Below, piece by piece: positions 6,012-30,371 of a stretch of 32,000 bases of DNA. The notes below the pieces were generated by a model. The model saw nothing but the letters and a program-made list of their open reading frames with translations, made no database searches and was not told the DNA's origin. Each line of letters begins with the position of its first letter. Positions within the stretch are counted from its first letter, which is position 1. The position numbers were made by a program, and so were the translations under genes. Source of the DNA: Halomicronema hongdechloris C2206 (lineage in GTDB: Bacteria > Cyanobacteriota > Cyanobacteriia > Phormidesmidales > Phormidesmidaceae); NCBI RefSeq assembly GCF_002075285.3, contig NZ_CP021983.2, positions 2,790,001 to 2,822,000 on the forward strand, given 5' to 3'.

Positions 6012-6082
6012 TCCCCCAATCCCTCTTACTCGGGATGTACATGGTGACGATGTACACGGTAAGGAGCTGAGGGATTGGGGGA
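6012..6082 (-). terminator. Long inverted repeat, candidate terminator downstream of the DM13 gene
   Basis: 14-bp perfect arms tcccccaatccctc (6012-6025) and gagggattggggga (6069-6082) with a 43-nt loop. On the minus strand the structure is followed by ATTTTCAT. Confidence 0.4.
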
Positions 6083-6152
6083 GATCTTCGCGATGGGCTT
6101 TCCCAATCGCAACTTGCTACCAGGTCTGAGCACAGGCCGTACTAGCAGCCGA

Positions 6153-6635: not shown

Positions 6636-6830
6636 GGATAAGTCTCCGTAATGATGTCAATGCTGTGAATTGCCATCGAAACCATCCCTATCCTGGGCGG
6701 CTCGATTGAGGAAAGGTTGATAGCTGTCTGAGAAATTTTGAGCATTGGCTGAAAATTTGATGAAGGATAAGACGATGGCCGTCACACTTTGCCAGGAATT
6801 GCACTATTCCCTAGAGCCTTCCCTTTGAGA

Positions 6831-7451: not shown

Positions 7452-7495
7452 CAGTGATACCCAGACTCGGTTTAACCGGGTGTTTTCAGAATGCT

Positions 7496-8023: not shown

Positions 8024-8325
8024 GGTGTTACACAATCTGAGTAATACGGTTCCCGAACAGAGATAGCGTAGGCCAGTCAGCGGCGGACAGAGCCCGTCGG
8101 TCAACCGCCGAGTCTTAGCAGGGCGACGGACCCCCTCCTGTGAGCGACTACCTAGGACTCTGCGGCAGAAATAACGCCTCTATTGACTAGAGTGGAAAGG
8201 CTGCATTGATTCAGGATCTCCCTTTCTGCCTTCCACCTTCCTACTTCTGCCTTGGCAACCTAGGCGCTGGCTGCAGTACGCTATCCCAGGGGATAGTGCA
8301 GAAACGGCGAGGCCTGTGACAGGGG

Positions 8326-9570
8326 CTAGGCACCGCCTAGGGGCAGCACCCGCACGATGGCGGCGGCCGCGATCTGCCGTTGACCGATGGGCACCACCGC
8401 CAAGCCATTGGTCTGGGCCAGATTGATTAAATTGCCAGAGCTGTGGCTACCGGCCGCTAGGCGAAAGCTATAGCCGTCCTGGCCCGCCCGTAACTGGCCC
8501 CAGAGGTAGGTCTCCCGTTGCCCCCCGGCCCGTAGGGGCTGCTCGTTGGTAGCGGGGACGAAGGCCGGACTCCAGCCCCTGGCCTGGCCCGAGAGTTTGC
8601 GCAGGGCGGGGGCCACAAAGCGCCAGAAACAGACCAGGGCCGAAACCGGGTTGCCCGGTAAGCCGATGTAGAGGCTGGGGGTGTGCGCTAGGGTGGCGAC
8701 GGTGAGGGGTTTCCCCGGCTTCACCGCGACGGCCCGAATAGGGAGGGTGCCGCCCAGATCCTTGAGGATGGTATCGACATGGTCGTAATCCCCCCCGGAG
8801 ACGCCGCCGGAGGAGAGGACCAGGTCGGCCTGGGTCAGGGCCGATGCGATCGCAGCGCGCAATTGCGGTGGATCATCGGGCACGATGCCCAGGCAGAGGG
8901 GCTCCCCTCCAGCCTGACTGACCAGGGCCGCCAGGGCATACTGATTCGAGTCCACAATTTGGCCGGGGCCCAGGGGCGTCTCCAGCGAGACCAACTCACT
9001 GCCAGTGGAGAGCAGGGCCACCCGAGGGCGGCGATAGACCGGCACCTGAGCACACTGAGCCGCCGCCAGCACGGCAATATCAGCCCCCCCCAGGACCCCT
9101 CCCGCCGGCAACAGGGGATCGCCGGCTCGATAGTAGCTGCCCCGCTGGCGCACGAAGGCCTGGGGCTGGGGGGCTTGCAAAATATGGACTCGGCCAGACT
9201 GGGCCTGGGTGTGCTCCTGCATCACCACCGTGTCGGCCCCGGCCGGCAGCATGGAACCGGTGAACAGACGGGCCGCCTGCCCTGGGTGCACCGTTTGCTG
9301 GGGCACCTGACCGGCCGGGATTTCCTCGATTAGCGTCAGCACCACGGGCGCCTCGGTGGTGGCCCCCTGGACATCCTGGCAGCGCACGGCATAGCCATCC
9401 ATGGCCGAGTTGTCCCAGTGGGGAAAGTCCAGATGGCTGCTGATCTCAGCCGCCAGCACTCGGCCCAGGGCCTGGGGCAGCGGCACCTGCTCTCGATCCT
9501 GTAGTGGATCTAGGGGCTGAACCAGCTGCAGAATCAGGGCTTCGGCCTCGGTGGCAGGCATCATGGCCAT
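8326..9570 (-). CDS. moeA: Molybdopterin molybdotransferase MoeA
   Basis: Motifs NSAMDGYAV, TGSMLPAGADTVV, STGSEL, SSGGVSGGDYD and VAVKPGKP. The start at M26 (9570) avoids overlap with the upstream gene end (9578). Confidence 0.85.
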   Translation of the reverse strand: MAMMPATEAEALILQLVQPLDPLQDREQVPLPQALGRVLAAEISSHLDFPHWDNSAMDGYAVRCQDVQGATTEAPVVLTLIEEIPAGQVPQQTVHPGQAARLFTGSMLPAGADTVVMQEHTQAQSGRVHILQAPQPQAFVRQRGSYYRAGDPLLPAGGVLGGADIAVLAAAQCAQVPVYRRPRVALLSTGSELVSLETPLGPGQIVDSNQYALAALVSQAGGEPLCLGIVPDDPPQLRAAIASALTQADLVLSSGGVSGGDYDHVDTILKDLGGTLPIRAVAVKPGKPLTVATLAHTPSLYIGLPGNPVSALVCFWRFVAPALRKLSGQARGWSPAFVPATNEQPLRAGGQRETYLWGQLRAGQDGYSFRLAAGSHSSGNLINLAQTNGLAVVPIGQRQIAAAAIVRVLPLGGA

Positions 9571-9577
9571 GGAATCC

Positions 9578-11653
9578 TCAAGATGACGTCGAGGCGGGCA
9601 GGGCGGCTCGCTCTGGGATAGGCCGCTGCTCATCGGCATCGGCATCGGCGAGTAGCCAGCCCCGCAGCCAGCGCGCCACAGTCCGCTGGGCCAGATCGCC
9701 GACGATGCGCTGCCCCATGGAGTGGGTCTCTGGCCGCATCAATAGGTCTGGGAGTCGACTGGCTAGCAAGGTGGGGTCAAACCCCTCCGTATCCCGCAGG
9801 ATGGCCAGAATGTTGACGATGTGCTGCCAGTCCTCCTCGGCTGGGGGGGCGCCGTTTTTGCCGGCGGTCTCAGCCTGGGCAGGAGCCTCGCCCCAGCCGA
9901 AGCGTTCATAGAGGGTGTGGCTGAGCAGGTGAGGCAGGTGCTGACCCAGCTGATCCAGGGTGCGCACGGCTTCAGCGGCGATGCGATCGCGAATGAAGCG
10001 GCCCCGCTCGGAGTATAAAAACTCGATGGTTTGATCTAAGACCTTGGCCAGGTCATAGTCCTCGCTGTTGCGGGCATTGCGCAGCAGGTTTTCCAAGCGG
10101 TTCCAGCGAAACCGGTCATCCTTGAACAGCAGTTCCCGCAGCGAGGTGCGCAACTCTGGGGCCGGATCCGTCAACAGTCGCTTCGAGACATAGGGATAGG
10201 CCTTGCTGAGCACCTTGAAGTTGGGATCTACATTGATGGCGATACCCTCCAGGGTGACCAACGAACGGATGATCAGGGCATAGTAGGCCGGCACCCGGAA
10301 GGGATATTCATACATCAGGGCCGAGAACTCATCGGTGATGCTCTTGAAATTCAACTCGGCCACGCTGGCCCCCAGGGCGTTGTTGAAGACCTCGGCCAGG
10401 GCCGGAATGATTGGCCGTAGGTCGGTATCGGGGGTGAGGAATTCCAGCTTGATGTAGTCCTGGGCCAACCCTTCGAAGTCGCGGTTGACCATGTGCACCA
10501 CCGCCTCGATCAGGCCGTAGCGCTGATAGGGCTTCACCTGGCTCATCATGCCGAAGTCGAGGTAGGCCAGTTTGCCATCGGCGGTGGCCAGCAGGTTGCC
10601 GGGGTGGGGGTCGGCATGGAAGAAGCCATGTTCCAGCAGCTGCCGCAGGGAGCATTGCACGCCGATCTCGATCAGATGGGTGGCGTCGATGCCCCGAGTT
10701 TGCAGTTCGCTCAACTTCGTCAGCTTAGTGCCGTCGATCCACTCCATGGTCAGCACCCGACGGCGAGTGTACTGACGATAGATGCGGGGCACATAGATGT
10801 CATTCAGGTGGCCGTAAAGCTTGGCGAAGCGCTCGGCATTCTGAGCCTCGTGGGCATAGTCCATCTCCTCGAAGATGCGGGCCCCAAACTCATCCATGAT
10901 CCCCACCAGATCGCTGCGAATCTGGGGAATGTAGTCGGTGCCCAGCTGGGCCAGCAGCCGTAGGATATAAACGTCCAGGGTAATGCGCTGGGCCAGGTCG
11001 GGCCGTTGCACCTTGACGGCTACCACCTCACCGCTGTGCAGACGGCCTTTATATACCTGCCCCAGGGAGGCGGCGGCCACAGGGTCTGGGGTCAGGTCGG
11101 CGTAAACTTCGTCTGGCGGAGCCCCCAACTCGGTCTCGATGAAGTGGTAGGCCAACTCATTGGCAAAGGGGGGCAACTGGTCCTGCAAGCTGGAGAGTTC
11201 GTCTAGAAAGATGGGCGGCACCAGGTCGGGCCGAGTGGAGAGGGCCTGGCCCACCTTGATATAGGCCGGTCCCAGATCCGTCAATAATTCCCGCAGCTGC
11301 ACGGCTCGCTGCCGCTGCCGTTGCTCGCTTTTGCCCTGGCGGCGATCCCACCAAATCGTCAGATAAAAGGTGGCGAAGGGCCACAGAATACTGAGAAATC
11401 GCCAGACGATCTGCCAGGGGCGACGGCGATAGTAAGCTGCGATCGCATCGGGGTCGTAGACCCGCAATTGTTCAAAAATGCTCTTGCCAGCGCTCCCCGA
11501 TGATGCTGGGAACGGCGCTAGGGCGCCGCTATCGTCAACCACTGGCTCACTGGCCACCGTAACCGTCGCACTTGGTGAATCTGACCCGGAAAAATGGGGC
11601 GATGCCATAGCCGTCCTCGAAGACCCGTCCAGGGGAGTGCTTGTCAACGTCAT
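9578..11653 (-). CDS. ABC1/UbiB (AarF) family atypical kinase
   Basis: Motifs AAASLGQVYKG, VAVKVQRP, FFHADPHPGNL and YLDFGMM. The N-terminal extension and the start codon are uncertain. Confidence 0.85.
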   Translation of the reverse strand: MTLTSTPLDGSSRTAMASPHFSGSDSPSATVTVASEPVVDDSGALAPFPASSGSAGKSIFEQLRVYDPDAIAAYYRRRPWQIVWRFLSILWPFATFYLTIWWDRRQGKSEQRQRQRAVQLRELLTDLGPAYIKVGQALSTRPDLVPPIFLDELSSLQDQLPPFANELAYHFIETELGAPPDEVYADLTPDPVAAASLGQVYKGRLHSGEVVAVKVQRPDLAQRITLDVYILRLLAQLGTDYIPQIRSDLVGIMDEFGARIFEEMDYAHEAQNAERFAKLYGHLNDIYVPRIYRQYTRRRVLTMEWIDGTKLTKLSELQTRGIDATHLIEIGVQCSLRQLLEHGFFHADPHPGNLLATADGKLAYLDFGMMSQVKPYQRYGLIEAVVHMVNRDFEGLAQDYIKLEFLTPDTDLRPIIPALAEVFNNALGASVAELNFKSITDEFSALMYEYPFRVPAYYALIIRSLVTLEGIAINVDPNFKVLSKAYPYVSKRLLTDPAPELRTSLRELLFKDDRFRWNRLENLLRNARNSEDYDLAKVLDQTIEFLYSERGRFIRDRIAAEAVRTLDQLGQHLPHLLSHTLYERFGWGEAPAQAETAGKNGAPPAEEDWQHIVNILAILRDTEGFDPTLLASRLPDLLMRPETHSMGQRIVGDLAQRTVARWLRGWLLADADADEQRPIPERAALPASTSS

Positions 11654-11796
11654 TAAATCAAAATTTGCTCCTGTAAACTATTGTAACGAATTGCGCCGGA
11701 GCACGACGGGACAAAGCGGTGGAGAGTGGAAAGAAAGCTGTACCCTCAAAAGATAGATGCTTCTCGGATGTCCTATCCATCGCAGCCAGGCTGGGT

Positions 11797-13548
11797 ATGC
11801 TAACCTCCCTTCACATCGAAAATATTGCCCTGATCGATCATCTCCATCTGCAGCTCCAACCTGGGCTGAATGTGCTCACCGGTGAAACCGGTGCCGGTAA
11901 GTCCATTATCCTGGATGCCATTGATGCCCTGTTGGGAGGCAAGGCCAGCCAGCGGTTAATCCGCAGCGGCGCCAAAAAGGCCTTTCTAGAGGCCACCTTT
12001 ACCCTGTCACCCGATCTGAAACGTTGGCTGCAGACCCACCATCCCCAGATTCCCCTGAGTCATGAATTGGTCTGTAGCCGAGACCTCACCGCCGGGCGTG
12101 GCACCGTCCGCAGCCGCTCTCGCCTCAACGGCACCCTGGTCAATAAGGCCCAGATCGAAGCCCTACGCCCCCTGCTAGTCGAGATCACGGCCCAGGGACA
12201 GACCCTACAGGTGGGCTCCCCCGACCGGCAACGGGATTGGCTGGATGGCTTCGGGGGAGAATCTCTGACGCGGCAGCGCCAACAGGTGACCCAACTCTAC
12301 AATGCGGCCCTAGAGGCTCAACGGGCCCTGGAACGCCGTCGCCAGGCCGAGCAACAGCGCTTGGAACAGCTGGACTTGTTTGACTATCAGAGCCGGGAGC
12401 TGACCGCGGCCAACCTAGACGATCCCGACGAACTAGACCAGCTGCAGCAAGAGCGGCAACGGCTGAGCCATAGTGTAGAGCTGCAGCAGCAAAGCTATCA
12501 GGCCTATCAGATCCTCTACGAGAACGAGACTGGCGGCGAGGCCTGCGCCGACCTGCTGGGCAAGGCAGAATCCCTGCTGAGCGACATGTTCAACTTCGAC
12601 CCCACCATTGCCCCCACCCTGGATCTTGTCAGCAATGCCCTGGCCTCTGTGGAAGAGGCTGGTCGCCAGATCAACGCCTACGGTGACACCATCGAGAGCG
12701 ATCCCCAGCGGCTGCAAACGGTGGAAGAGCGCCTCAGCCAGCTGAAGCAATTGATCCGCAAGTACGATCGATCCTTGGCGGAGTTAATCCAATATCGCGA
12801 CGAGCTGCAGGCGACACTAACGGCCATGGAGGGCGACGGCCAGTCCCTAGAGGCCCTGGAGCAGGCCTATCACACCCGCCGCCAGCACCTACTGGCCGCC
12901 TGTGCCGAGTTAACCCACCAGCGCCAGCAAGCGGCCCAGTCACTAGAAGACACCCTGGTCGCCGAACTCAAACCCCTGGCCATGGAACGGGTGCAATTTC
13001 AGGTCGATCTGCGCCCCATGGAGCCCACGGCCACTGGAGCCGATAGGGTTCGCTTTCTGTTCAGTCCCAATCCAGGGGAACCATTGCAACCCCTGGCTGA
13101 GACTGCCTCTGGGGGGGAAATGAGCCGGTTTCTGTTAGCCCTAAAGACCTGCTTCTCGCGGGTAGATCCCGTAGCTACCTTGATTTTCGATGAAATCGAT
13201 GTGGGCGTCTCAGGGCGGGTGGCCCAGGCCATTGCCGAGAAGTTGCATCAGATTGCCCGTCAGCATCAGGTGCTCTGCGTCACCCATCAACCCATCGTGG
13301 CGGCCATGGCCGACATCCATTTCCAGGTGGATAAGCAGGTCGTCGATGCCTCGGCCCAGACTGGTCGAGCCCCGGGCCAGGGCGACCCTGACGATAGCGT
13401 GCGTACCGTGGTGCGAGTAACTCCCCTAGATCGGTCGCAGCAACGGCAAGAACTGGCCCAACTGGCTGGCGGTCAATCCCATCAACAATCCCTCACCTTT
13501 GCCGATGCCCTGCTGGCCCAGGCCGATACTATTCGTCAGAAAAAATAA
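11797..13548 (+). CDS. recN: DNA repair protein RecN
   Basis: MLTSLHIENIALID start, Walker A GETGAGKSI, long coiled-coil middle, signature SGGEMSRFLLAL and Walker B LIFDEIDVGVSG. Confidence 0.9.
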   Translation: MLTSLHIENIALIDHLHLQLQPGLNVLTGETGAGKSIILDAIDALLGGKASQRLIRSGAKKAFLEATFTLSPDLKRWLQTHHPQIPLSHELVCSRDLTAGRGTVRSRSRLNGTLVNKAQIEALRPLLVEITAQGQTLQVGSPDRQRDWLDGFGGESLTRQRQQVTQLYNAALEAQRALERRRQAEQQRLEQLDLFDYQSRELTAANLDDPDELDQLQQERQRLSHSVELQQQSYQAYQILYENETGGEACADLLGKAESLLSDMFNFDPTIAPTLDLVSNALASVEEAGRQINAYGDTIESDPQRLQTVEERLSQLKQLIRKYDRSLAELIQYRDELQATLTAMEGDGQSLEALEQAYHTRRQHLLAACAELTHQRQQAAQSLEDTLVAELKPLAMERVQFQVDLRPMEPTATGADRVRFLFSPNPGEPLQPLAETASGGEMSRFLLALKTCFSRVDPVATLIFDEIDVGVSGRVAQAIAEKLHQIARQHQVLCVTHQPIVAAMADIHFQVDKQVVDASAQTGRAPGQGDPDDSVRTVVRVTPLDRSQQRQELAQLAGGQSHQQSLTFADALLAQADTIRQKK

Positions 13549-13563
13549 CCTCTACACTTTGGA

Positions 13564-15177
13564 GTGGAAAACCTAGCGTCCCGTGTGCCCATGTCCTGGT
13601 TGATGGTGGTGGAATCGGCCCTGGAAGATCCAGCGATTGAAGCGAACCTGCGCCAATTCTGCTTGGTACTCCTGGTATCCCTGGGGGTTGCGACCCTATC
13701 GCGGGTCCTGACCCTGCTGCGCAACATTCCCTACACGCTGTTGTTGTTGCTGGTGGGGCTGGGGCTGGCCATTTTAGATGTGCGCCTGGTTAACCTCTCC
13801 CCAGAGCTGATTCTATTCATCTTCCTGCCACCGCTATTGTTTGAAGCCGCCTGGAACCTAAACTGGCAAAGCCTCAGGCGTGATTTTATTCCCATTCTGC
13901 TCTATGCCGTCGTCGGAGTGCTGATCAGCATTGGCGGCCTAGTGCTGGGCCTGGGCACCCTGGCCGGGGCGTCTCTAGCCACGGTGCTGTTGGTGGGGGC
14001 CAGCCTATCGGCTACGGATCCGGTCTCGGTAGTGGCCCTGTTTCGAGAACTGGGGGTGGATAAACGCCTCACCACCCTAATGGAGGGGGAAAGTCTGTTT
14101 AATGACGGGGTGGCCGTGGTCGCCTTCAATCTGCTGGTGGGGTTGGCCCTGGGAGTCGAGCAATTCGACGTCTCGGTGACCGTGGCTCGCTTTTTGGTCT
14201 TCGTCGGCATCGGCACTGGCATCGGGGCCCTGATTGGCTTCGGCATTTCCTTTCTGACTCAGCGCTTCGACTTGCCCCTAGTCGAGCAGTCCCTCACCCT
14301 GGTATCGGCCTATGGTACCTATCTGGTGGCCGAGGAACTGGGCGGCTCTGGGGTAATTGCCGTGGTGACTACCGGCCTGATCTTGGGTAACTTCGGCTCC
14401 CGCATCGGCATGAATCCCCGCACCCGCCTGGCGGTGTCAGAGTTCTGGGAGTTCGTGGCCTTCTTCGTCAATTCCATCGTGTTTCTGTTGATTGGCGATC
14501 AGGTGAAATTCGAGGGGTTAGCCAATAATCTCAATGTCATCGGCATTGCCATCGCCATTATTTTGATCACCCGGCTGGTCAGTATTTTTGGCCTTGGTGC
14601 CCTGAGCAACTGGCTGGTGCAGGCGAATATTCCCCGTCAGGGCCAGACCGTGCTCTGGTGGGGGGGGCTGCGAGGATCGGTGTCAGTGGCCTTGGCCTTG
14701 AGTGTGCCGGTGAGTCTATCCCAACGGGAAGAGATCATCGCCATCGTGTTTGGGGTGATGTTGTTTACCCTGCTGGTGCAGGGGCTGACCACCCAGCCCC
14801 TGTTAGAAAAGCTGGGGCTACTCGGGGATGAACCACTGCGCCAGGAGTATAAGCAGATGGTGGCCCATCGGGTGGCCATGAATCGGGTGATGCAGCGACT
14901 GAGAGATCTGAAGCAGCGCCAGGAAATGGACCCGGAATTATTGGGCTATCAGATGGCCCTGGTGGAAGGTCAACTCAATGAGGTCAACGAAAAGCTGACC
15001 AAGTTAGTCCGTCAGAATCCCGAGATTCAAGCCTTCGCCACCCAGCAGCTGCGGGATGAATTGTTGGCGATCGAATCGGACACCTACGCCGAGTTCATTC
15101 GGGCCGGACAAATTAAGGATGAATTGAAGCCCCTGCTGCAAGAGGTGCTGCCGGATCGATTGGGGGAAGAGCATTAG
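13564..15177 (+). CDS. CPA1-family Na+/H+ (cation:proton) antiporter, NhaP-type, with C-terminal soluble tail
   Basis: Polytopic hydrophobic protein with LSATDPVSVVALFRELG, ESLFNDG and WGGLRGSVSVALAL motifs. The start is GTG 13564 or ATG 13591. Confidence 0.85.
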   Translation: MENLASRVPMSWLMVVESALEDPAIEANLRQFCLVLLVSLGVATLSRVLTLLRNIPYTLLLLLVGLGLAILDVRLVNLSPELILFIFLPPLLFEAAWNLNWQSLRRDFIPILLYAVVGVLISIGGLVLGLGTLAGASLATVLLVGASLSATDPVSVVALFRELGVDKRLTTLMEGESLFNDGVAVVAFNLLVGLALGVEQFDVSVTVARFLVFVGIGTGIGALIGFGISFLTQRFDLPLVEQSLTLVSAYGTYLVAEELGGSGVIAVVTTGLILGNFGSRIGMNPRTRLAVSEFWEFVAFFVNSIVFLLIGDQVKFEGLANNLNVIGIAIAIILITRLVSIFGLGALSNWLVQANIPRQGQTVLWWGGLRGSVSVALALSVPVSLSQREEIIAIVFGVMLFTLLVQGLTTQPLLEKLGLLGDEPLRQEYKQMVAHRVAMNRVMQRLRDLKQRQEMDPELLGYQMALVEGQLNEVNEKLTKLVRQNPEIQAFATQQLRDELLAIESDTYAEFIRAGQIKDELKPLLQEVLPDRLGEEH

Positions 15178-15249
15178 CAGCGCTATCTCAGATCCAGCAA
15201 TGGTCAGAGTTGCGATGGCCGCAGGCCGGTCTGCGACCCTCGCACGGTG

Positions 15250-15292
15250 ATCTCGCTCGGGTAGAAGGCTGGAGGATGCGATCGCAGCGGCT
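15250..15292. repeat. Copy A of a 43-bp direct repeat (att-like) at the left edge of accessory region B
   Basis: atctcgctcgggtagaaggctggaggatgcgatcgcagcggct matches 20105-20147 at 40/43 positions, with weaker similarity extending about 15 nt upstream. Confidence 0.8.
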
Positions 15293-15557
15293 CACTAACC
15301 TCCACAGGTATGGGGACAACTGCAGAATGGTGGAACCATAATCTACTGAGATAGGGTAACTATCATCACAGTCTACGTTGTTATGCTCCGGAGGTAGGTT
15401 ATCCATAAGAGCAATCTTTGAAATTTTCTTGAACTATCTTCAACCCGGAAGCTTTTTCGCAGGGTACCTCAACTAGCATGAAGGCAAGCTAGTTCAAACA
15501 TGATTGCCAATGAGATCGCAGCTATGAATAATTTTTACTTTCAACAGGAACTGACGT

Positions 15558-16238
15558 ATGGAAACTAAGATGAGTAGACCTGTCAAACGACAAGCATTAG
15601 AAGTGGATACCTTAGACACTCTTTTTCAGGATTTAACCTCGTTTACTGCCAGAAATTTTCAACGAGAAACCATAGAAGCGATTTTACAGGGAGCCTTAGA
15701 AGGTAGCTTCAGGGGGACGCTCTTGCGGGCACCCACAGGGTCTGGCAAAACGGAAACAGCTGTATCCCCCTATCTGTTCGCAAGGACGTTAAGCATAGAG
15801 TTTCCTAAAAAACTGATTTATGTAGTGCCGTTAAGAACTTTGGCCAATAGTTTACGGGTAAGAACCCAGGGTCTGGTAAATGATTGGGCGAAGAAACACC
15901 TGCTCAATCGCCCACTGGCAGTCACACTTCAAACTGGAGAAAATCCTGAAGATCCAAGATTTGAAGGAGATATTATTTTCTGCACGATTGATCAAATGTT
16001 AAGCAGTTTTCTGAATATTCCATATTCAGTAGGTCGTGGTTCTGCCAACGTGAATGCAGGTGCTATTTTTTCTTCTTACTTAGTTTTTGACGAGTTGCAT
16101 TTGCTTGATCCAGAGCGCTCCTTTGCAACCCTTTTGAAGGTTTTAGAGCAAGTGAATGGGATTTCTCCTTTTTTGTTAATGACTGCGACTCTGACAGATG
16201 AGCTAGCAGGTGAAATTCAGAAGGTAGTTTCCCAATGA
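15558..16238 (+). CDS. Cas3-like DEAH helicase, N-terminal RecA lobe (first part of a split gene)
   Basis: Walker A LLRAPTGSGKTETAV, motif Ia VVPLRTLANSL, motif II VFDELHLLD and motif III LLMTATL. It ends in an ATGA overlap with the next ORF. Confidence 0.8.
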   Translation: METKMSRPVKRQALEVDTLDTLFQDLTSFTARNFQRETIEAILQGALEGSFRGTLLRAPTGSGKTETAVSPYLFARTLSIEFPKKLIYVVPLRTLANSLRVRTQGLVNDWAKKHLLNRPLAVTLQTGENPEDPRFEGDIIFCTIDQMLSSFLNIPYSVGRGSANVNAGAIFSSYLVFDELHLLDPERSFATLLKVLEQVNGISPFLLMTATLTDELAGEIQKVVSQ

Positions 16239-18331
16239 AAGTTATTGAAGTGCAATCATCAGATTTACAGAAAATAGAGGGCGATCGCTGTCGCACTTTT
16301 GCCGCCATTGAGTCTCCATTGACTGCCGATTTAATCCTTCAGGATATTCGTGAGCATAATCGCAGACGAGTTATTGTTCTTTGCAATGTCGTATCTTTAT
16401 CCCAGGGATTATTTCAGGACTTAGTCAATCACAAAGATTCTGATAGGTTAGAGATTACGCTGCTCCATTCCCGCTTTTTACCCGAAGACCGAAAGGAAAA
16501 AGAAGCGGATTTGGAAAGGAGGTTTGGAAAGGAGTGGCAACAGCAGGATGACGGTAAATGTCATGTGTTGATATCAACTCAGGTAATTGAGGTGGGCATC
16601 AATATCACCTGTGAGGTCATGCATACCCATCTATCGCCGATGAGTTCTTTATTGCAACGCGCCGGACGCTGTGCCCGGTTTGGGGGTAGGGGTGAGGTCA
16701 GAGTCTACCGTGAGATTCAGGTCGGAGGCGACACGCCAGCTTTGACGGAGGCTGATATTGCCGAAGATGTTGACGAGCAGGGTAAGCAGACTGGGAGGAA
16801 ACGGCAGTTCTTACCCTATGAAGATGAAATCTGCAATTTAACCTGGAAGGTCTTAAAGCAGCATGACTCTTCAGTTCCAGTGGGTTTCAACATTGAGGAA
16901 GACTGGGTAAACGAAGTTCACGAAGATGAGTCACAATTACAAATCAAGCGCAGACAAAACAATCGCAAGAGCTTTATCACTCGATTTGAGGATGCTATTT
17001 TTCGAGGTGATCGCTCGGCTTCCCGTGACTTAATCCGCTGGGTTGATAACCGCAATATCTTTGTTGCCAGAGAACCCATTCTTATTGATGGTGAAAGCTC
17101 CGAAGTATCTATCGATGAATTAGAGCCGTTCTCTTTGCCGAGAACAACACTCTGTAAAGCCTTGAGAGATTTTCAGGAATTGGGAAATCAAAGTTGGCTA
17201 TTTAAGCGCATTGAATCACCCGCAGACAAGAAAGCTGAAACCTATAGTCAGCCTATCCTCAGCGACATTAACACCACTAAAGACATTATCTTTAGCACCC
17301 GTATTCTGGTGAATCCTGAATATGTGTTCTACAGCAAGGATGTTGGCCTAAGAATTATCGTTGATCCTGAGCCATCAAGGGATGGCGAGCCTTTTGTTTC
17401 GCAGCCCAAGCAGAAAAAGACTGTCATCAATCAGTATCAGTACCACATGGATACCTACGTTGAGCATTTAGCGTTGATGTGGCGATGCTGGAATGAAGCC
17501 TGCTACGAACCTTATGTCAGTGTAAAAGATGAGATTTGTGAGGCAGGAGGTCGTTTTATTCGAGAGAAGGTCTTGCCAGATTACAAAATTACTGAGTCTG
17601 AATTACGACAGATAGAGACTACAGCCCTGTTTGAAATTCTGGTGTTCCTGGCAGTTTTAACCCATGACCTCGGCAAGCTTCAGCAACCTTGGCAGGATTC
17701 CATGCGATTATGGCAAAAAATTGCTTACGAAGAGTTTCGATCTGAAACATTCAAGGCTCACAATCCCAGGTCACTCTTGCTAGCCCACACAGATTATGAC
17801 CCTAATGATAAAGAAACGAAGGACGTAGAGGGAAGAACTCAAAAACAGCGAATGCGAATTCATGAGACGACCGATCCACGTCCCGGACATGCCATTGAGA
17901 GTGCATTTCTGGGTTGGGAATTTCTGGACGCTCAATTCGTGCCTCTACTTGAGGATCACTTTGATCTTGATGAGGAGCAAATCAATAATCTTCTCAGTGT
18001 TGTCATCATGGCTGCGGGGAGACATCATTCAGCCTGGACGAACGGTTGGCAATTATCTGAGGTGGCGACGAAGCAGAGCATCAGGCTCCATCCACAAGCG
18101 AACCAGGCTGTTGCCAAAAGTTGGACAGCTTTATTGAATAAACTCAATCTGCCCTCCTCCATTGCGCTTCCCTCAAAGCCTTTCCACTTCAATCAAACAG
18201 AATATGAGGTCGGCGTTACCCGCCTGGACTGTTTTGAACCCGATGACCTGGAATATCAACAACTCTATGCTCTGGTGGTGAGGGCTCTGAGGCTATGTGA
18301 CAGCCGATCAGTGCAAATCAACCATCCTTGA
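16235..18331 (+). CDS. Cas3-like helicase C-terminal RecA lobe plus C-terminal HD nuclease domain (second part of a split gene)
   Basis: Helicase motifs LHSRFLPEDR, ISTQVIEVGINI and LLQRAGRCARFG. HD-domain motifs are YVEHL, LTHDLGKLQQPWQ, GHAIES, AAGRHHSAW and LRLCDSRS. Confidence 0.8.
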   Translation: MKVIEVQSSDLQKIEGDRCRTFAAIESPLTADLILQDIREHNRRRVIVLCNVVSLSQGLFQDLVNHKDSDRLEITLLHSRFLPEDRKEKEADLERRFGKEWQQQDDGKCHVLISTQVIEVGINITCEVMHTHLSPMSSLLQRAGRCARFGGRGEVRVYREIQVGGDTPALTEADIAEDVDEQGKQTGRKRQFLPYEDEICNLTWKVLKQHDSSVPVGFNIEEDWVNEVHEDESQLQIKRRQNNRKSFITRFEDAIFRGDRSASRDLIRWVDNRNIFVAREPILIDGESSEVSIDELEPFSLPRTTLCKALRDFQELGNQSWLFKRIESPADKKAETYSQPILSDINTTKDIIFSTRILVNPEYVFYSKDVGLRIIVDPEPSRDGEPFVSQPKQKKTVINQYQYHMDTYVEHLALMWRCWNEACYEPYVSVKDEICEAGGRFIREKVLPDYKITESELRQIETTALFEILVFLAVLTHDLGKLQQPWQDSMRLWQKIAYEEFRSETFKAHNPRSLLLAHTDYDPNDKETKDVEGRTQKQRMRIHETTDPRPGHAIESAFLGWEFLDAQFVPLLEDHFDLDEEQINNLLSVVIMAAGRHHSAWTNGWQLSEVATKQSIRLHPQANQAVAKSWTALLNKLNLPSSIALPSKPFHFNQTEYEVGVTRLDCFEPDDLEYQQLYALVVRALRLCDSRSVQINHP

Positions 18332-18370
18332 ATCTGTCAAAGACCATTTTATTAACGAGGATCTGAACCG

Positions 18371-18625
18371 ATGACCTACCTGCAAGAACAACAACTGCTA
18401 GAGCGCATCACCATCAACCCTGACATTTTTGGCGGTAAGCCGATTATTCGAGGGCGCAGGTTAGCAGTAGAACACATTTTAGGAATGCTAGCGGCTGGCG
18501 ATTCTGTGGAAACGCTACTAGAGGGCTATCCCTGGTTAGAACAGGAAGACATCCAAGCTTGTCTGGTCTACGCTCATCGTCTCATTGGCCATGAGCGGGT
18601 TGAGCCTCTCCTGATCGAGGCTTAA
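18371..18625 (+). CDS. DUF433-family antitoxin-like protein
   Basis: ITINPDIFGGKPIIRGRRLAVEHILGMLAAGDS..LLEGYPWLEQEDIQACLVYA is the characteristic DUF433 pattern. A GAGGA SD precedes the ATG, and there is a 2-nt gap to the next gene. Confidence 0.75.
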   Translation: MTYLQEQQLLERITINPDIFGGKPIIRGRRLAVEHILGMLAAGDSVETLLEGYPWLEQEDIQACLVYAHRLIGHERVEPLLIEA

Positions 18626-18627
18626 CC

Positions 18628-18890
18628 ATGAAGCTTTTACTCGATAGCTGTGTTTGGGGAGGTGCCAAATTACCTTTATCTGAAGCGGGTCATGATGTCG
18701 TTTGGGCCGGGGATTGGGATAGCGACCCAGGAGACGCAGAAATTCTGCTAACGGCCTATCAGGAAGGACGGGTGCTGGTGACGATTGACAAAGACTTTGG
18801 TGAGTTGGCCATCGTGCGGGGCACCCCCCACTGCGGCATTATTCGATTGGTCAACTGGAAAGCGCGACAACAGGCCATCGCCTGCTTATA
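18628..18890 (+). pseudogene. DUF5615-family (PIN/Mut7-C-like) toxin gene, last 9 codons displaced by IS630
   Basis: MKLLLDSCVW...AEILLTAYQEGRVLVTIDKDFGEL...GIIRL is the DUF5615 pattern. Removing 18891-20026 joins it in frame to 20027-20054, giving ...ACLYQYLDGSPE* (96 aa in total). Confidence 0.7.
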
Positions 18891-20024
18891 CCAATTACAA
18901 GTGAGTATGCGCCATAGCAAAAGCGCATACTCAGAAATCAGGAAGTGCCATGGGTCGTCCTCTCAAGATTGCGATCGCCGAAAGCGAAGACCGCCTCAAA
19001 AAGTCCCTGCAAGGAGCGCGTACAGCGAGCCAAAAAGAACGGTTGCAAATGCTCTACTGGCTCAAAAGTGGACAGATTGATCGGCGCGATGAATTAGCCC
19101 GTCGCTTAGGGCGAGACAACGCCACCGTGACTCGCTGGCTCGGCAAGTACCGTCAAGGTGGCCTAGCACGATTACTACATGAGGGTAAAGCCCCTGGCAA
19201 AACGCCTCAGGTGCGCGGCCAAGCGTTAGCGGCCTTGAAAGCTCGATTGGCACAACCCCAGGGATTTCGTAGCTATGGAGAGGTGCAGCAGTGGCTGCAG
19301 GCGGAGTGGGGCATCGAGTTGTCCTACACGGCGGTTCATCAACTGGTGCGCTATCGCCTCCGAGCCAAGCTGAAAGTGCCTCGGCCTCGAAGCGTTAAGA
19401 CCGACCCAGCGACCCAAACCGCGTTTAAAAACCCTCCCCTTAGCGATGCGGGAACTGCAGCGATTGCAGGGCGGTCAACGTCGGGTGCGTTACCTATGCC
19501 AAGATGAGACCCGCTTAGGACTCAAAACGATTGCTGGCCGATTACTGACGGCCCCCGGCATCAAACCCATCGGACCTCAGCAGTGGCAACGAGAGGCCTT
19601 TTACCTCTATGGAGCAGTATGGAGCAGTCGAACCTCTCAGGGGCTTCAGCTTCTTCTACGAGTTCTCCCACCTCGACAGCACTTGCTTTCAGGAATTCCT
19701 CAACCAGTTGTCGGCGCAATTAGGGTCAGACCTTGCCCTGTTGAAACTCGACCGTTGCAGTGCCCACTGTGCCAAAGCCCTGGAATGGCCTGAGAACATC
19801 ATCCCGATTTTTCAACCGCCGCACTCGCCCGAACTCAATCCCATTGAGCGGGTTTGGCAAGCCCTGAAGCAGCCTTTGCGCTGGCAGAATTGCCCGTCCC
19901 TGGCGGCATTAAGGGGTGAGGTAACAGAGGTGCTAGAAACCCTGACCCCAGAGCATTTGATGTCCTTGACTTCCTATGATTTCGTCTTGGAAGCCCTATT
20001 GAGCGCAGCCTTATAAGTAATTGG
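18891..20024 (+). mobile_element. IS630-family insertion sequence (1134 bp), decayed
   Basis: Terminal inverted repeats are ccaattac (18891-) and gtaattgg (-20024). It is flanked by TA (18889-90 and 20025-26). A 10-bp perfect hairpin gagtatgcgc/gcgcatactc (18903-18932) lies upstream of the transposase ATG. Confidence 0.8.
18950..20016 (+). pseudogene. IS630-family transposase broken into three frames
   Basis: The HTH part is 18950..19507, the DE-containing part (VRYLCQDETRLGL) is in frame 19446.., and the C-terminal part (QPPHSPELNPIERVW) is 19609..20016. The lesions are a +1 frame change around the A5/C-run at 19427-19439 and a 10-bp tandem duplication atggagcagt at 19609-19618/19619-19628. 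Confidence 0.8.
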
Positions 20025-20104
20025 TATCAGTACCTGGATGGCTCACCTGAATAATTCAGGCTAAGCGACCTGAGAGACGCAATCGTGATGCGATCGCATG
20101 GGGA

Positions 20105-20147
20105 ATCTCGCTCGGGTAGGAGACTAGAGGATGCGATCGCAGCGGCT
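20105..20147. repeat. Copy B of the 43-bp direct repeat
   Basis: atctcgctcgggtaggagactagaggatgcgatcgcagcggct lies in the same orientation as copy A. It sits between the displaced DUF5615 3' end and the WYL regulator stop. Confidence 0.8.
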
Positions 20148-20214
20148 GCTGAGAAATCTATCCAGATCGCATCCAATTGGTTGAATATCTCTGGATCAGA
20201 GATCCACAACTGAC

Positions 20215-21165
20215 TCATCCCTGATGATTTCGATAAGCCCTTTCATATTCCTTCAGTAGCTGGTTAGCCATCCACTGAGGCTCAAGAACCTTGACGTTGC
20301 TACCATATTGCAGCATTCGTTGACGGAACCAAAACCAATGGTCTTCAGAGGTTTCAATATCGACGAATCGTTGATCCGGATCCCGATACAGTTCAACTTC
20401 GTTGGTTCGGCGGGGTTGGTAGTGGGCCAAGGGGCCACTCATACGGTATCGCACCTTTTCTGTCGGGAAGCTGAGTCTGGACCAGAGAGTATCTGAAGCA
20501 GGGTAAACCTTGAGGATACGATCAATGCGAAAGATCAGGTTTTGCTCGATGCTGGGCTGCTTTTCACTGTAACGAGGTGAAAAGTTAGAGATATGGGCAA
20601 ATAGGTATAGCAAGCCGTTGTGAAAGCGGAGTTCTGAGAGATCGCAGTCCCAGTTATTGGTTTTACCGGAACTGCTACGGTATCGAATGACGTAGCGACA
20701 TCCTCGCTGAAAGCGGTCTTGTAATTGTTTAACCGTCTCTTCTAGCTTAGTCTCGCTGTAATCAACAGGAGGACTAAAGGCAACTTTGACTTGGGATGGC
20801 TCAACGGGCTCACTTAGCTTGCCAATATGGAGTAGGTCACTGGCCTGGGCAGAGAAGCCCATATCGCTGAGGACATATGCTGCAAGTGCCAGAGAGTCTC
20901 TTTGCTTGGGAGAAAGCAGGACTGGGAAAGAGGACTCCACCAACTCGTAGGGGCGGTTAGGAGCACTGCTAATTGTAAAGCCACAGTCCCTGAGCTTCCG
21001 GATGGCTCGGCTAACTTTCTGATCAATGTCATTAGAGGACTGGCCATGCCGGTCTAGAAAATCCGTCATTCGGAGGCTCAATGCCTCACGGGTGAGAGGT
21101 TGCTCTGATAGGCACCTCAAGATTTCGAGGGAAAAGGCCAGAGAATGTAGCTTCGCGTCACTCAC
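20215..21165 (-). CDS. HTH-WYL-WCX transcriptional regulator, divergent from the cas operon
   Basis: N-terminal wHTH (LEILRCLSEQPLTREALSLRM), a central WYL-like beta region (RYVIRYRSSSGKTNNWDCDLSELRFHNGLLYLFAH) and a C-terminal extension. WYL regulators are known next to cyanobacterial type I-D loci. Confidence 0.7.
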   Translation of the reverse strand: MSDAKLHSLAFSLEILRCLSEQPLTREALSLRMTDFLDRHGQSSNDIDQKVSRAIRKLRDCGFTISSAPNRPYELVESSFPVLLSPKQRDSLALAAYVLSDMGFSAQASDLLHIGKLSEPVEPSQVKVAFSPPVDYSETKLEETVKQLQDRFQRGCRYVIRYRSSSGKTNNWDCDLSELRFHNGLLYLFAHISNFSPRYSEKQPSIEQNLIFRIDRILKVYPASDTLWSRLSFPTEKVRYRMSGPLAHYQPRRTNEVELYRDPDQRFVDIETSEDHWFWFRQRMLQYGSNVKVLEPQWMANQLLKEYERAYRNHQG

Positions 21166-21480
21166 TAGGAGGATGAGGTGGTGAGCAGCATGAGCAGTAG
21201 AGGGGACTCCAAATCATACACTTGCTCTATGTTTCAGTCCCGCCTGGCAGGATTCTGGTAAGTCGAGTCTTGATTCGGGTATCCCCTCCATGGCACAGAA
21301 TAGCATTCTACCCAGAAGCATGGAGAATAATTTGTGGTAATAGAACAAGTATATAAACCACTGTGCTACCTTAAATAAAAGCAGGGCCACACCAAAGCGG
21401 CGCAGCCCTCAAAAAACGCAGTTAGTCCACAGCTTCCAACTCAGACAACTGCTAACTCACAATATCCACGGAGGATACTC
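21166..21480. promoter_or_regulatory. Divergent intergenic control region (WYL regulator / cas operon)
   Basis: 315-bp AT-richer spacer between divergent genes. It contains a TATATAAA box near 21350 and a GGAGGA SD at 21469-21474. No operator could be defined by eye. Confidence 0.35.
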
Positions 21481-21747
21481 ATGAATTATAGCTTCAACTT
21501 CGGAGACTATAATGCCCCCCTGGCATTAGGCCTCAGAACGGAAGAAGTAGAAAAGATAGTGCCCTTGATTACCCAGCAAGCGATCACCGGCAAGTTGATC
21601 AGAGAGATGGCATCTCAAGGCGCCTTAGAAGTACGTTATCCACTTGGCAGTCTGGATATCAGGCCATCGGTTGAGGAAAAGGTCAATGGTCGTTGGCGAT
21701 GGGATATCTGGATTAAGCCAACGGCAGTTCATTTTCTTGGGAAATAG
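21481..21747 (+). CDS. Small hypothetical protein (88 aa) preceding cas3'
   Basis: It has a strong SD (GGAGGA, 6-nt spacing) and an ATG start. I recognise no family. Confidence 0.5.
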   Translation: MNYSFNFGDYNAPLALGLRTEEVEKIVPLITQQAITGKLIREMASQGALEVRYPLGSLDIRPSVEEKVNGRWRWDIWIKPTAVHFLGK

Positions 21748-21766
21748 CTTCTTTCTAAATCTACTG

Positions 21767-21837
21767 GGTGGCTTCTGTGAGCTTTACGGAAGCCACCTCC
21801 TACGGATAGGAGATGTTGTCTTTTTTTGACGACATCT
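21767..21837 (+). other. Twin hairpins between the small ORF and cas3'
   Basis: Hairpin 1 is ggtggcttc (21767-75) / gaagccacc (21789-97) with a 13-nt loop. Hairpin 2 is agatgttgtc (21811-20) / gacgacatct (28-37) with one G-U pair and a T7 loop. Confidence 0.45.
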
Positions 21838-21884
21838 AATTTGGTACTGGTATTACTATCGACCCAGATACCGGAATATAAATC

Positions 21885-24005
21885 ATGAAAGTTTTTCTTA
21901 AACCACTATATTCCAAGCTCAATGATGGGCCAGGGAACTGCCCTCTTGGGTGTCAAGAGAAGTGCCGAGTTGCTGAAAATTCAGATCTAAAGCCCCTAAA
22001 AGGCCAGTCTTGTGCCTTATCTTTACACCAGGCCCTTACCTGGGAAGCTGTGGTGCAAGGGGATACTGACGTAATCTTTAATACGGCGGCAACTGGGGAT
22101 GGGAAGTCTCTGGCTGCTACCTTACCTATTCTCTTGAATAAGAACCTCCGGATGGTGGGAATGTATCCCACTATCGAGCTGGTTGATGACCAGGATAGAA
22201 GTCACCGGGACAGTGATACCCGAAAGGGCTGGCATTCAACGTTTGGCTTGAATGCGGAAAAACGCATTGATCGTCTTTATGGTGAAGAACTTAGCCGTCG
22301 GGTACGCGATGGAGAAAGTAATCGGTTTCAAGAACTGCGCAAAGCAATCGAGAATAAGCCTCTGATATTAACTAACCCAGACATTTTTCATTTGATCACG
22401 CATTTTCAGTATAAGAACCCTGCTTATGGAGATTTTGAGCTTCCTTTGTTAATGGCTGAGTTTCCAGATTTCTGGTTATTTGACGAATTTCATATATTTG
22501 GACCACATCAGGAATCAGCTGTCATTAACAGCATGGGCTTTATTCGGCGGTCTCAGCGACGCAAGCGACGGTTCTTATTTACCTCTGCAACTCCCAAAGA
22601 TTCTTTCGTAAAACAACTTAAGGCAGCCGACTTTGGGGAACCCAAAATCATTCCTGGAAACTATTCAGATCATCCACAAGACGGATATCGAAAAATTCTT
22701 GAACCTGTCGAACTTGAATTTATGCAGCTCAAAAAACAGGATGTTTTGGAGTGGTTACAGGGGAAATACCACGAAGTCTATGAATGGCTAGCAAATGAGC
22801 AACGAGGGCGAGGACTAATCATCCTCAACTCAGTAGCTCAAGCTGGCAGAGTTGTTGATTTGCTGAAAGGTTTATTTCAGAACTCGGTAGAGGTCGAGGA
22901 AATTAGTGGGCGGATGGATCGAGCTTCTCGTCAGGTAACTCAGGAAAAATTGAAACATTCCCGGAAACCTGTCCTGGTAATTGGTACATCGGCTGTAGAT
23001 GTTGGTGTAGATTTCAAAATTCATCTGCTGATTTTTGAAAGTAGTGACTCTGCCACTGTTATCCAACGACTCGGCAGGTTGGGGAGACATGAAGGTTTCA
23101 AGCATTATCGGGCGATTGCGCTACTGCCAGAATATGCCTCCTGGATTTTGGGCAAATTGAAAAAACAGCTCACTGAAGGGGCAAGCGTTGACCGTGAAGA
23201 GCTTCGCGATACCATCATTGACGCTTTTGATGCCCCCAAAGAGTTTCAGGAATATCGTCGGGAGTGGGGTGTAGTTCAGGCTCAAGGGATGCTGTCGCAG
23301 TTAAAAGCCAAAGAATATGCCAAGGTGATGCAGCCCGTCTACGAGCGCATCGCCAAAGATTTACAGCCTCTTTATGGCAGCAACATCATAGGCTTTGCCC
23401 AAAGAAAGTTACGAGATTACGATAAATCAGTCGCTGAGGCAATCCAGACCGAGTTGATTCGCTTTCGTGGTGGTACCAGTATCCAGGCTGCTGTATGGGA
23501 TGAGAACCGCTTTTACACCTACGACTTGCTCAGACTGTTGCCTTATACCCTGGTCGAAGTATTGGACGAAGCCGAATTCCTAGAAGCTGCCTATCGCAGA
23601 GGCTATCGGGACTACACCTTCCAATATGCCCAAGTGTTCTTAAAAGTACAGAGGTGGGTTGATGAGCGTATAGATATCCAGCTACGGACTGGACGGGATA
23701 GTAGCGAATTGCAATGCTGTGACTTAATTTTGCTTGGCAAACTCAGACTGTCTCAGCATCCCCAAGCCGATGTTATCAACTGCATGAGTCGCAAGAAGTT
23801 TCTTAGCTTCCTAGTACCAGGCGATTACTGGAAAGTGAGAGATGCCCTTAGAGTTGGTCCACTTTTTGGTTTGTATCCATTGTTAGATAGCTCCGAAAAA
23901 TCCTATGCCTGTGCTTTTGGGCAAGATGCTTTGCTACTTAAAGCGTTGAGAAATGGGCGCTTAAGCAAACTCTGCCGCCAAAATTCAGCCCCAATGTTTT
24001 TTTAG
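21885..24005 (+). CDS. cas3: Type I-D Cas3' helicase (no HD domain)
   Basis: Walker A NTAATGDGKSLAA, motif II LFDEFHIFG, motif III FTSATPK, GTSAVDVGVDF and motif VI QRLGRLGRHEG. It is the first gene of the cas10d-csc2-csc1-cas6 operon. Confidence 0.85.
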   Translation: MKVFLKPLYSKLNDGPGNCPLGCQEKCRVAENSDLKPLKGQSCALSLHQALTWEAVVQGDTDVIFNTAATGDGKSLAATLPILLNKNLRMVGMYPTIELVDDQDRSHRDSDTRKGWHSTFGLNAEKRIDRLYGEELSRRVRDGESNRFQELRKAIENKPLILTNPDIFHLITHFQYKNPAYGDFELPLLMAEFPDFWLFDEFHIFGPHQESAVINSMGFIRRSQRRKRRFLFTSATPKDSFVKQLKAADFGEPKIIPGNYSDHPQDGYRKILEPVELEFMQLKKQDVLEWLQGKYHEVYEWLANEQRGRGLIILNSVAQAGRVVDLLKGLFQNSVEVEEISGRMDRASRQVTQEKLKHSRKPVLVIGTSAVDVGVDFKIHLLIFESSDSATVIQRLGRLGRHEGFKHYRAIALLPEYASWILGKLKKQLTEGASVDREELRDTIIDAFDAPKEFQEYRREWGVVQAQGMLSQLKAKEYAKVMQPVYERIAKDLQPLYGSNIIGFAQRKLRDYDKSVAEAIQTELIRFRGGTSIQAAVWDENRFYTYDLLRLLPYTLVEVLDEAEFLEAAYRRGYRDYTFQYAQVFLKVQRWVDERIDIQLRTGRDSSELQCCDLILLGKLRLSQHPQADVINCMSRKKFLSFLVPGDYWKVRDALRVGPLFGLYPLLDSSEKSYACAFGQDALLLKALRNGRLSKLCRQNSAPMFF

Positions 24006-24018
24006 ATTGCAAATTACA

Positions 24019-27003: not shown

Positions 27004-27005
27004 AC

Positions 27006-27998: not shown

Positions 27999-28018
27999 GT
28001 ATCTGGAGGATAGATAAG

Positions 28019-29561: not shown

Positions 29562-29597
29562 CCCTCTCATGTCCTGCCATACCCTTGCGCGATTATC

Positions 29598-30356: not shown

Positions 30357-30371
30357 CAACCTTCACCAGTC

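Follow-up and report, generated by a model that had tools for sequence, protein, structure and literature searches.

A 32,000-nt stretch of the chromosome of the cyanobacterium Halomicronema hongdechloris C2206 (NZ_CP021983.2, positions 2,790,001 to 2,822,000; hereafter the window, in which all coordinates are counted) was found to contain two copies of a 43-nt direct repeat. The copies bracket a segment that carries an orphan cas3, a DUF433/DUF5615 toxin-antitoxin pair and an insertion sequence (IS) of the IS630 family. Copy A is located at the compositional border between a GC-rich backbone and what gene order in a sister lineage marks as an inserted defense island, and copy B at the seam between the bracketed segment and a type I-D CRISPR-Cas locus. 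We propose that the two 43-mers are att-like (attL/attR-like) recombination junctions, a reading for which we consider the chances to be roughly evenly balanced.

A two-copy direct repeat

A repeat search of the window confirmed the 43-nt direct repeat of the original prediction, with copy A at 15250 to 15292 (ATCTCGCTCGGGTAGAAGGCTGGAGGATGCGATCGCAGCGGCT) and copy B at 20105 to 20147 (ATCTCGCTCGGGTAGGAGACTAGAGGATGCGATCGCAGCGGCT), both on the plus strand, 4855 nt apart and identical at 40 of 43 positions. The three mismatches are all A/G transitions at repeat positions 16, 19 and 22, corresponding to 15265, 15268 and 15271 in copy A and to 20120, 20123 and 20126 in copy B, with a spacing of exactly 3 nt. 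Both ends of the repeat are sharp. A MAFFT alignment of the 250-nt stretches around the copies revealed no extension, and the 100-nt flanks on the left or on the right scored at the shuffle mean in local alignment. Each half of the repeat (with at most three mismatches) and a purine/pyrimidine (R/Y)-degenerate version matched these two sites only, with zero matches in 100 of 100 shuffles, and the next-best ungapped match to the 43-mer in the window was 25 of 43, the same as the shuffle maximum. The repeat is therefore real, non-random and present in two copies within 32 kb, and chance does not explain it. No inverted copy was found in the window by the repeat search, and no inverted repeat is shared by the two ends of the bracketed segment, which begins at 15293 and stops at 20104.

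The positions of the copies had also been predicted correctly, with copy A at a transition from GC-rich to AT-rich DNA and copy B between the cas3/toxin-antitoxin module and the type I-D locus. The GC content drops from ~0.6 to 0.40-0.46 at the right edge of copy A (15290 to 15350, in 150-nt windows). Copy B starts 50 nt after the stop codon of the DUF5615 gene, as restored by removal of the IS element, and ends 67 nt before the stop codon of a WYL gene on the minus strand.

Folding of either strand of either copy gave no consistent structure (z-scores of 0.0, 0.2 and 1.2, and -2.1 for one strand of copy B only). Searches with Rfam (gathering and E-value thresholds) and ARAGORN gave no RNA family or tRNA at or near the repeats, and no terminator-like or promoter-like features were found in the 43-mer. 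The latter result speaks against a regulatory element, for example a WYL operator or a terminator beside CRISPR-related units, which could otherwise be suspected since both copies adjoin cas-related units and a WYL regulator is encoded so close to copy B. Copy B, however, lies past the 3' end of the WYL gene, away from the divergent promoter region (21166 to 21884), copy A lies ~265 nt upstream of the cas3 ORF, and the related type I-D and split-cas3 loci are without the sequence. We consider a regulatory role most improbable.

Each copy contains the highly iterated palindrome (HIP1, GCGATCGC) in an extended context of 12 nt, at 15278 to 15285 in copy A and at 20133 to 20140 in copy B. HIP1 was found at 13 sites in the window against 0.56 expected, and this excess marks the organism as a cyanobacterium. 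The 10-bp HIP1 palindrome TGCGATCGCA is the sole symmetry in the 43-mer. Because the extended context in the right arm, GATGCGATCGCAGC, is found again at two other HIP1 sites of the window (~8843 and ~11436), the distinctive part of the repeat is mainly its left 27 nt, which are identical at 24 of 27 positions and unique to copies A and B within the window. HIP1 accounts for 8 to 14 of the 43 positions.

Short repeats abound in the genomes of cyanobacteria, where HIP1 is over-represented 15- to 300-fold (PMC5861425). Against this background the main rival to recombination junctions is a dispersed intergenic repeat, specific to H. hongdechloris and containing HIP1, which would be at most a substrate for rearrangement and not the scar of an insertion; its presence at an island border would then be a coincidence. 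The recurrence of the right arm at two other HIP1 sites fits such a repeat, as do the central mismatches between identical arms, which resemble variation within a family, and the empty site of the sister lineage described below, which is without the sequence. However, a window with ~25 intergenic spacers contains two copies only, and both are on module borders. There is also no hairpin or fold like that of repetitive extragenic palindromic elements, no inverted copy, and no terminal inverted repeat like those of miniature inverted-repeat transposable elements (MITEs). An R/Y-tolerant pattern of the 43-mer had no match in 185,579 species genomes, and none in the JGI metagenomes, which include the contigs of the sister lineage (the H. 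hongdechloris chromosome being in neither collection). The 43-mer was likewise absent from the 21.6 kb of the sister locus (L092) that were compared. A second metagenome pattern gave one match, located inside a soil adenylate-cyclase gene (L087), which was rejected as chance. Two patterns had no matches in viral contigs, BLAST against plasmids and phages gave chance matches of ~20 nt only, and the sequence is not in the supplement of the genome paper (PMC6416890). These negative results argue against a widespread high-copy family, and not against a strain-specific one. Overall, a dispersed repeat appears unlikely to us.

The regular spacing of the mismatches raises the question of a coding origin. 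The two listed open reading frames (ORFs) over the repeats read the shared DNA in different frames (SRCDRILQPSTRAR and AAAIASSSLLPERD, respectively), in agreement with the original prediction. All three mismatches are synonymous in one frame per strand (SRSGRRLEDAIAAA or AAAIASSSLLPERD), and on the minus strand copy B is inside a 63-aa ORF whose ATG overlaps the WYL stop codon. The 43-mer could accordingly be a coding fragment, such as the end of a small gene displaced and duplicated when DNA inserted into it, and this would explain the differences at every third base. However, three differences share a codon phase by chance in ~1 of 9 cases, a stop codon directly precedes copy A in both frames, and no peptide match of at least 9 of 14 residues was found among 87 loci and 360 homologous proteins. 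Moreover, no small ORF follows the WYL gene in relatives, and the acyltransferase gene discussed below (ASC71721.1/XM38_026750) has an intact C-terminus that is unrelated to the 43-mer. A coding fragment is thus very unlikely.

The defense island and its two modules

The last backbone gene to the left of copy A encodes a Na+/H+ antiporter (13591 to 15177, plus strand; Pfam Na_H_Exchanger, 1e-67; 100% identical to ASC71701.1), and the backbone order to its left is DM13, MoeA, ABC1 kinase and SMC-like ATPase. Its stop codon occupies 15175 to 15177, and copy A begins 72 nt beyond, after a GC-rich spacer (15178 to 15249) that is unrelated to the left flank of copy B. As a sister lineage we used metagenome contigs (L092-L096) from the third member (P0362) of the antiporter 90% cluster. 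These contigs are collinear with the window from 6153 to 15181 at ~84% nucleotide identity (blastn), and DNA homology ends at 15181, 4 nt past the antiporter stop codon (blastn against L092). In the sister contigs, the antiporter gene is followed by a 117-nt spacer and then by a convergent acyltransferase gene, without cas3, a toxin-antitoxin pair or a type I-D locus. The orthologue of the latter gene in H. hongdechloris is ASC71721, and by accession order 19 annotated genes lie between it and ASC71701, of which ~17 are genes of the window plus cas2. Two genes that are neighbors in the sister lineage are thus 19 genes apart here, and the DNA from 15182 to a few kb past the window is therefore an inserted defense island. 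The empty site is demonstrated for the whole island and not for the 4.85-kb module alone.

The composition of the island differs from that of the backbone. GC content at third codon positions (GC3) is 0.65-0.79 in the backbone and 0.37-0.56 in the island, with 0.37-0.46 in cas3 and 0.39-0.56 in the type I-D block. Neither tetranucleotides nor GC3 told the cas3 module and the type I-D block apart. The genes downstream of the antiporter are not conserved in 63 more distant relatives, among which the largest cluster (12 loci) was uninformative.

The 72-nt spacer left of copy A is not alignable to the spacer of the sister lineage, and approximately half of the backbone intergenic spacers are not alignable at ~84% identity either. 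Two minor resemblances were observed, neither of which is significant. The left spacer and the 43-mer together measure 115 nt (72 nt + 43 nt), close to the 117 nt of the sister spacer, and 20175 to 20208, in the right flank of copy B, shows weak similarity to L092 11600 to 11635 in the sister spacer, including the 9-mer TGAATATCT (shuffle p ~0.05 before correction for 8 tests). This was the strongest case when the repeat and its flanks were compared with the sister spacer.

The bracketed segment begins with an AT-rich region (15293 to 15557, plus strand), which has a promoter-like site at 15504 to 15532 and no WYL or integrase remnant. It is followed on the same strand by a split cas3, consisting of a DEAD-box ORF that represents the N-terminal part of a type I-A-like Cas3 (15558 to 16238; Pfam DEAD; PADLOC Cas3a1; 82% amino acid identity to L083/L084) and of an ORF for the C-terminal part of the Cas3' helicase (16235 to 18331), with a weak C-terminal match to an HD domain (Cas3-HD). 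The two ORFs overlap by ATGA, both are full length compared with their homologues, and the best PADLOC model for the split gene as a whole is Cas3a1. Homologues of the split cas3 (47-83% amino acid identity) head complete loci in other cyanobacteria, in the order (WYL)-DEAD-cas3'-(toxin-antitoxin)-Cas8a-like-DevR-Cas5a-like-cas6-cas4-cas1. Many cyanobacteria share this DEAD/Cas3' split, conserved at the head of type I-A-like loci with Cas1d. In the window the gene is an orphan, as no cas8, cas7 or cas5 follows it, and no remnants of WYL, cas8, DevR or integrase genes were found around the module. A full-length cas3 without partner effector genes is thus placed beside a complete type I-D system that has its own cas3'.

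Downstream of cas3, and also on the plus strand, are a DUF433 antitoxin-like gene (18371 to 18625; Pfam 2.7e-24) and a gene for a DUF5615 (PIN-like) toxin (18628 to 20054). The toxin gene is split by an IS630-family element (18891 to 20024, plus strand), which has helix-turn-helix and DDE_3 ORFs with an extra frameshift, terminal inverted repeats (CCAATTAC... and ...GTAATTGG) and a target duplication of the dinucleotide TA. The element sits nine codons before the end of the gene and swaps the last 9 toxin codons for 64 IS-derived codons, by which the toxin may have been inactivated or altered. Removal of the element joins 18628-18890 to 20027-20054 and restores a protein of 96 aa, with a stop at 20054; the 50-nt spacer from there to copy B (20055 to 20104) has its own HIP1 at 20090. 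Because the element interrupts a gene that is restorable on its removal, it is a later, secondary insertion and not an original part of the module. The bracketed segment, now 4.85 kb long with IS630, originally measured ~3.7 kb.

To the right of copy B, 87 nt (20148 to 20234) have no homology to related type I-D loci. They consist of the 67-nt spacer and the last six to seven codons of a gene for a WYL/WCX transcriptional regulator (20215 to 21165, minus strand; 100% identical to ASC71707.1, XM38_026610). This gene is divergent from the type I-D cas operon (21481 to 32000, plus strand), in which profile and PADLOC matches identified a small ORF, cas3', cas10d, csc2 (cas7d), csc1 (cas5d), cas6, two small ORFs, cas4, cas1 and the start of cas2, collinear with relatives. 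No CRISPR array was found within the window. The two small ORFs between cas6 and cas4 (29598 to 30210; 86 and 91 aa) have no Pfam match and are kept in the relatives L085 and L086 (52-80% amino acid identity), where the cas6-cas4 interval also holds HepT/MNT or PIN toxin-antitoxin genes.

The WYL/type I-D block as a whole is collinear with, and 75-89% identical in amino acids to, loci of Nodosilinea sp. LEGE 07298 (L086), a Spirulina metagenome-assembled genome (L085) and JGI metagenome contigs (L088-L091). The block thus exists as a separate unit in three other genomic contexts, each with a different neighborhood. By these comparisons, copy B is positioned at a genuine seam of two modules that occur separately in other cyanobacteria. 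The absence of the 43-mer from the related type I-D and split-cas3 loci compared suggests that it is tied to this chromosomal site and not to either module.

The WYL edge of the type I-D block is a recurrent landing place for mobile DNA, because integrases, a remnant of one, and toxin-antitoxin pairs are present there in relatives; copy B is at the same edge. In L086, a tyrosine integrase of 534 aa converges on the WYL gene (10878 to 12482) and ends 10 nt after the WYL stop codon. In L085, the last 20 codons of the same integrase are kept at the identical position (10878 to 10937; 19 of 20 amino acids), from which it follows that the ancestor of this type I-D lineage had an integrase linked to it. 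A different integrase, of 391 aa, was found 334 nt from the WYL gene in the P0125 contig. In L088-L091, a DUF5615/DUF433 pair converges on the WYL gene, placed and oriented like its counterpart in the window (~11255 to 11846 in L088), and is followed by ParE-like, IS200/IS605 and NERD-helicase genes. The DUF433 protein of these contigs is 50% identical to that of the window and the DUF5615 protein is not detectably similar, which would fit either fast divergence or the repeated recruitment of one toxin-antitoxin family. The WYL gene itself differs in its last six to seven codons (20215 to 20234), which read ...YRNHQG and stop in the window, compared with ...LKTYEKHPDP and stop, conserved in L085 and L086. 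DNA homology with the related type I-D loci also breaks off at this point, and a rearrangement has therefore probably replaced the 3' end of the gene.

Origin of the repeat pair

We infer that the repeats arose by an insertion event. In the reading that we favor, a segment of ~3.7 kb would have been inserted when a 43-bp site that it brought along recombined conservatively with a similar but non-identical 43-bp site resident at the antiporter-proximal edge of the defense island. The cargo of this segment would have been the promoter region, the intact split type I-A-like cas3 and the DUF433/DUF5615 toxin-antitoxin pair. Insertion would have duplicated the site, and the later arrival of IS630 in the toxin gene would have extended the bracketed segment to 4.85 kb. 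The two parental sites presumably differed already, because both cas3 ORFs are intact while the repeats diverge by 7%. This combination suggests recombination of attP with attB, or of two similar sites, rather than an exact duplication followed by decay. As the module encodes no recombinase, the reaction would have been catalyzed in trans. One candidate catalyst is a tyrosine integrase of the kind that adjoins the WYL gene in related type I-D loci; another is the host recombination machinery acting on short, HIP1-containing homology, for which the identical stretches are only 15 and 21 nt long. Island borders of this kind are ordinary, and the mechanism put forward here is a proposal.

The island-border reading of the original prediction stands in part. 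It agrees with the insertion of the island between two genes that the sister lineage has side by side, with copy A at the compositional border, with copy B at the module seam and with the tyrosine integrase, or its remnant, beside the WYL gene in relatives of the type I-D module. Several observations weigh against it. Homology to the sister lineage ends 68 nt to the left of copy A and not at copy A. On the other side, homology to the related type I-D loci runs out at ~20234, in the last WYL codons. This point is 87 nt past the right end of copy B, so that no visible end of the type I-D block coincides with the repeat. The best gapped match of the 43-mer to the 117-nt sister spacer is 22 of 31 with two gaps, which 8% of control windows equal, in a sister lineage that is ~84% identical. 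The mismatches are central, between 15 and 21 identical bases, where the core overlap of a classical tyrosine recombinase would be expected to be identical, and dyad symmetry is limited to the 10-bp HIP1 palindrome, with no fold signal. Neither a recombinase gene nor a remnant was found in the window. As the original prediction had noted, there is no integrase, with no family match among ORFs of at least 60 aa (13.5 to 32 kb) or at least 90 aa (before 13.5 kb), and the integrase of the relatives has left no remnant there. Finally, DUF433/DUF5615 pairs, though only 50% identical, adjoin the WYL gene in L088-L091 as well, and the toxin-antitoxin pair might therefore be part of the type I-D block instead of accompanying cas3.

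A more specific version of the favored reading is full tandem accretion. Here a 43-bp attB separating the antiporter gene from the acyltransferase gene would first have received the type I-D island, and the cas3/toxin-antitoxin element would then have entered the resulting attL. This order predicts a third copy of the repeat beyond cas2 and the CRISPR array, adjoining the 3' end of XM38_026750. It is in line with the insertion of the whole 19-gene block between two genes that are neighbors in the sister lineage, with the places of copy A at the left border and of copy B at the module seam, with the integrases at the WYL end of related type I-D loci, and with the accession numbering, which leaves at most a few genes between the array and the acyltransferase gene. 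However, type I-D homology stops short of copy B by the 87 nt given above, the sister spacer contains no recognizable attB, and the two modules are not distinguished by composition. As composition does not separate them, the stepwise accretion of the original prediction is something we infer and not a result. We regard tandem accretion as possible, though rather doubtful.

In a more far-reaching reading, the HIP1-centered 43-mer would be the recombination site of a recombinase-less cassette system, with host enzymes moving defense modules in and out at the edges of CRISPR-Cas loci. To our knowledge, the cyanobacteria are a phylum without a known dif site. Candidates for the host enzymes are two orphan XerD-like recombinases or HIP1-stimulated RecA recombination; the genome paper of H. 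hongdechloris lists two XerD genes and no predicted dif site (PMC6416890). We consider a system of this kind a long shot. If it existed, it would be a cyanobacterial analogue of dif modules and integron cassettes, and HIP1 would have a role in island assembly.

If the 43-mers are att-like junctions, they would demonstrate the piece-by-piece assembly of a cyanobacterial defense island. The orphan but intact type I-A-like cas3 and the toxin-antitoxin pair would form a discrete and perhaps still excisable unit beside the type I-D locus. The 43-bp site could then be used to seek the responsible recombinase and similar cassettes in other cyanobacteria. Whether the 43-mers are junctions or a dispersed repeat, the result is local and descriptive, and current understanding is not overturned.

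Other features were observed to the left of the antiporter gene. A second low-GC island at ~2000 to 5500 (GC 0.34-0.43) is absent from the sister lineage, in which L092 1477 to 2505 corresponds to 959 to 6153 of the window. It contains an intact IS630 (ORFs 2613-3197 and 3194-3730, inverted repeats 2598-2624 and 3724-3750) and an AAA ATPase similar to AbiLi/PDC-M38A at 3890 to 4966 (PADLOC 1e-61), and no flanking direct repeats were found around it. An ORF at 1158 to 1775 (minus strand), with no Pfam match, contains a 117-nt tandem duplication (84% identical, 1473 to 1706) and a 42-nt tandem duplication (1312 to 1395). The 117-nt repeat is listed in the supplement of the genome paper at 2791501-2791713 (PMC6416890), and together with two IS630 entries of that supplement it locates the window at ~2,790,001-2,822,000 of the chromosome. 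The SMC/AAA_23-like ATPase gene at 11719 to 13548 has a PADLOC match to 'mad3' (1e-29). It is probably no mobile defense gene, because it belongs to the conserved backbone and is syntenic beside the antiporter gene in 35 relatives.

Comparison with known systems

Several classes of short repeats were considered and ruled out for the 43-mer. The target-site duplication of a transposon is an exact copy of 2-15 bp abutting terminal inverted repeats, whereas the copies here are 43 bp long with three mismatches and have no shared inverted repeat. The repeat or leader of a CRISPR array, with spacers of 30-40 nt, does not agree with two copies 4855 nt apart and no array in the window. A MITE was ruled out since there are no terminal inverted repeats and no hairpin, and a dif-type site since the HIP1 palindrome is the sole symmetry.

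The arrangement nevertheless recalls dif modules and integrative mobile elements exploiting Xer (IMEX). These are accessory modules without a recombinase, often toxin-antitoxin modules, between short XerC/XerD sites, and the sites of dif modules are inverted. The bracketed segment is similarly a small accessory module with short flanking sites and no recombinase of its own, by which a host enzyme would be implied. Unlike dif modules, the 43-mer does not have the 11-6-11 dyad architecture (~28 bp, with two 11-bp arms and a 6-bp spacer), and its two sites are direct.

The small dispersed repeats (SDRs) and MITEs of cyanobacteria (as cited in PMC5861425) resemble the 43-mer in being short, non-coding, intergenic and possibly associated with HIP1. 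They differ from it in that the 43-mer has two copies only in the window, with no terminal inverted repeats, target-site duplication or hairpin, and none in the other genomes searched. According to one report (bioRxiv 10.1101/2024.09.10.611283), integration becomes more efficient, in a Chi-like way, when the homology arms contain HIP1. Since each copy contains HIP1, HIP1-stimulated integration (PMC5861425; bioRxiv 10.1101/2024.09.10.611283) would be a possible route to a Campbell-type insertion over short homology, although the homology arms in those experiments were much longer than the repeats here.

With respect to the attL/attR sites of genomic islands and to integrase-less cis-mobilizable elements (CIMEs), which accrete in tandem at one att site (PMC5704250), membership of the 43-mers is not established. 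Direct repeats, an empty site for the whole island and a break in composition are present here, and an encoded recombinase is not. Unlike such elements, the window has no integrase and no tRNA or conserved gene end as a target, the empty site contains no recognizable single copy, and the mismatches are central and not in the arms. The likeness lies in the imperfect, same-orientation repeats of tens of bp around composition-shifted foreign DNA and, for CIMEs in particular, in a bracketed module without an integrase that is located beside a second island, with an empty site in a related lineage (PMC5704250).

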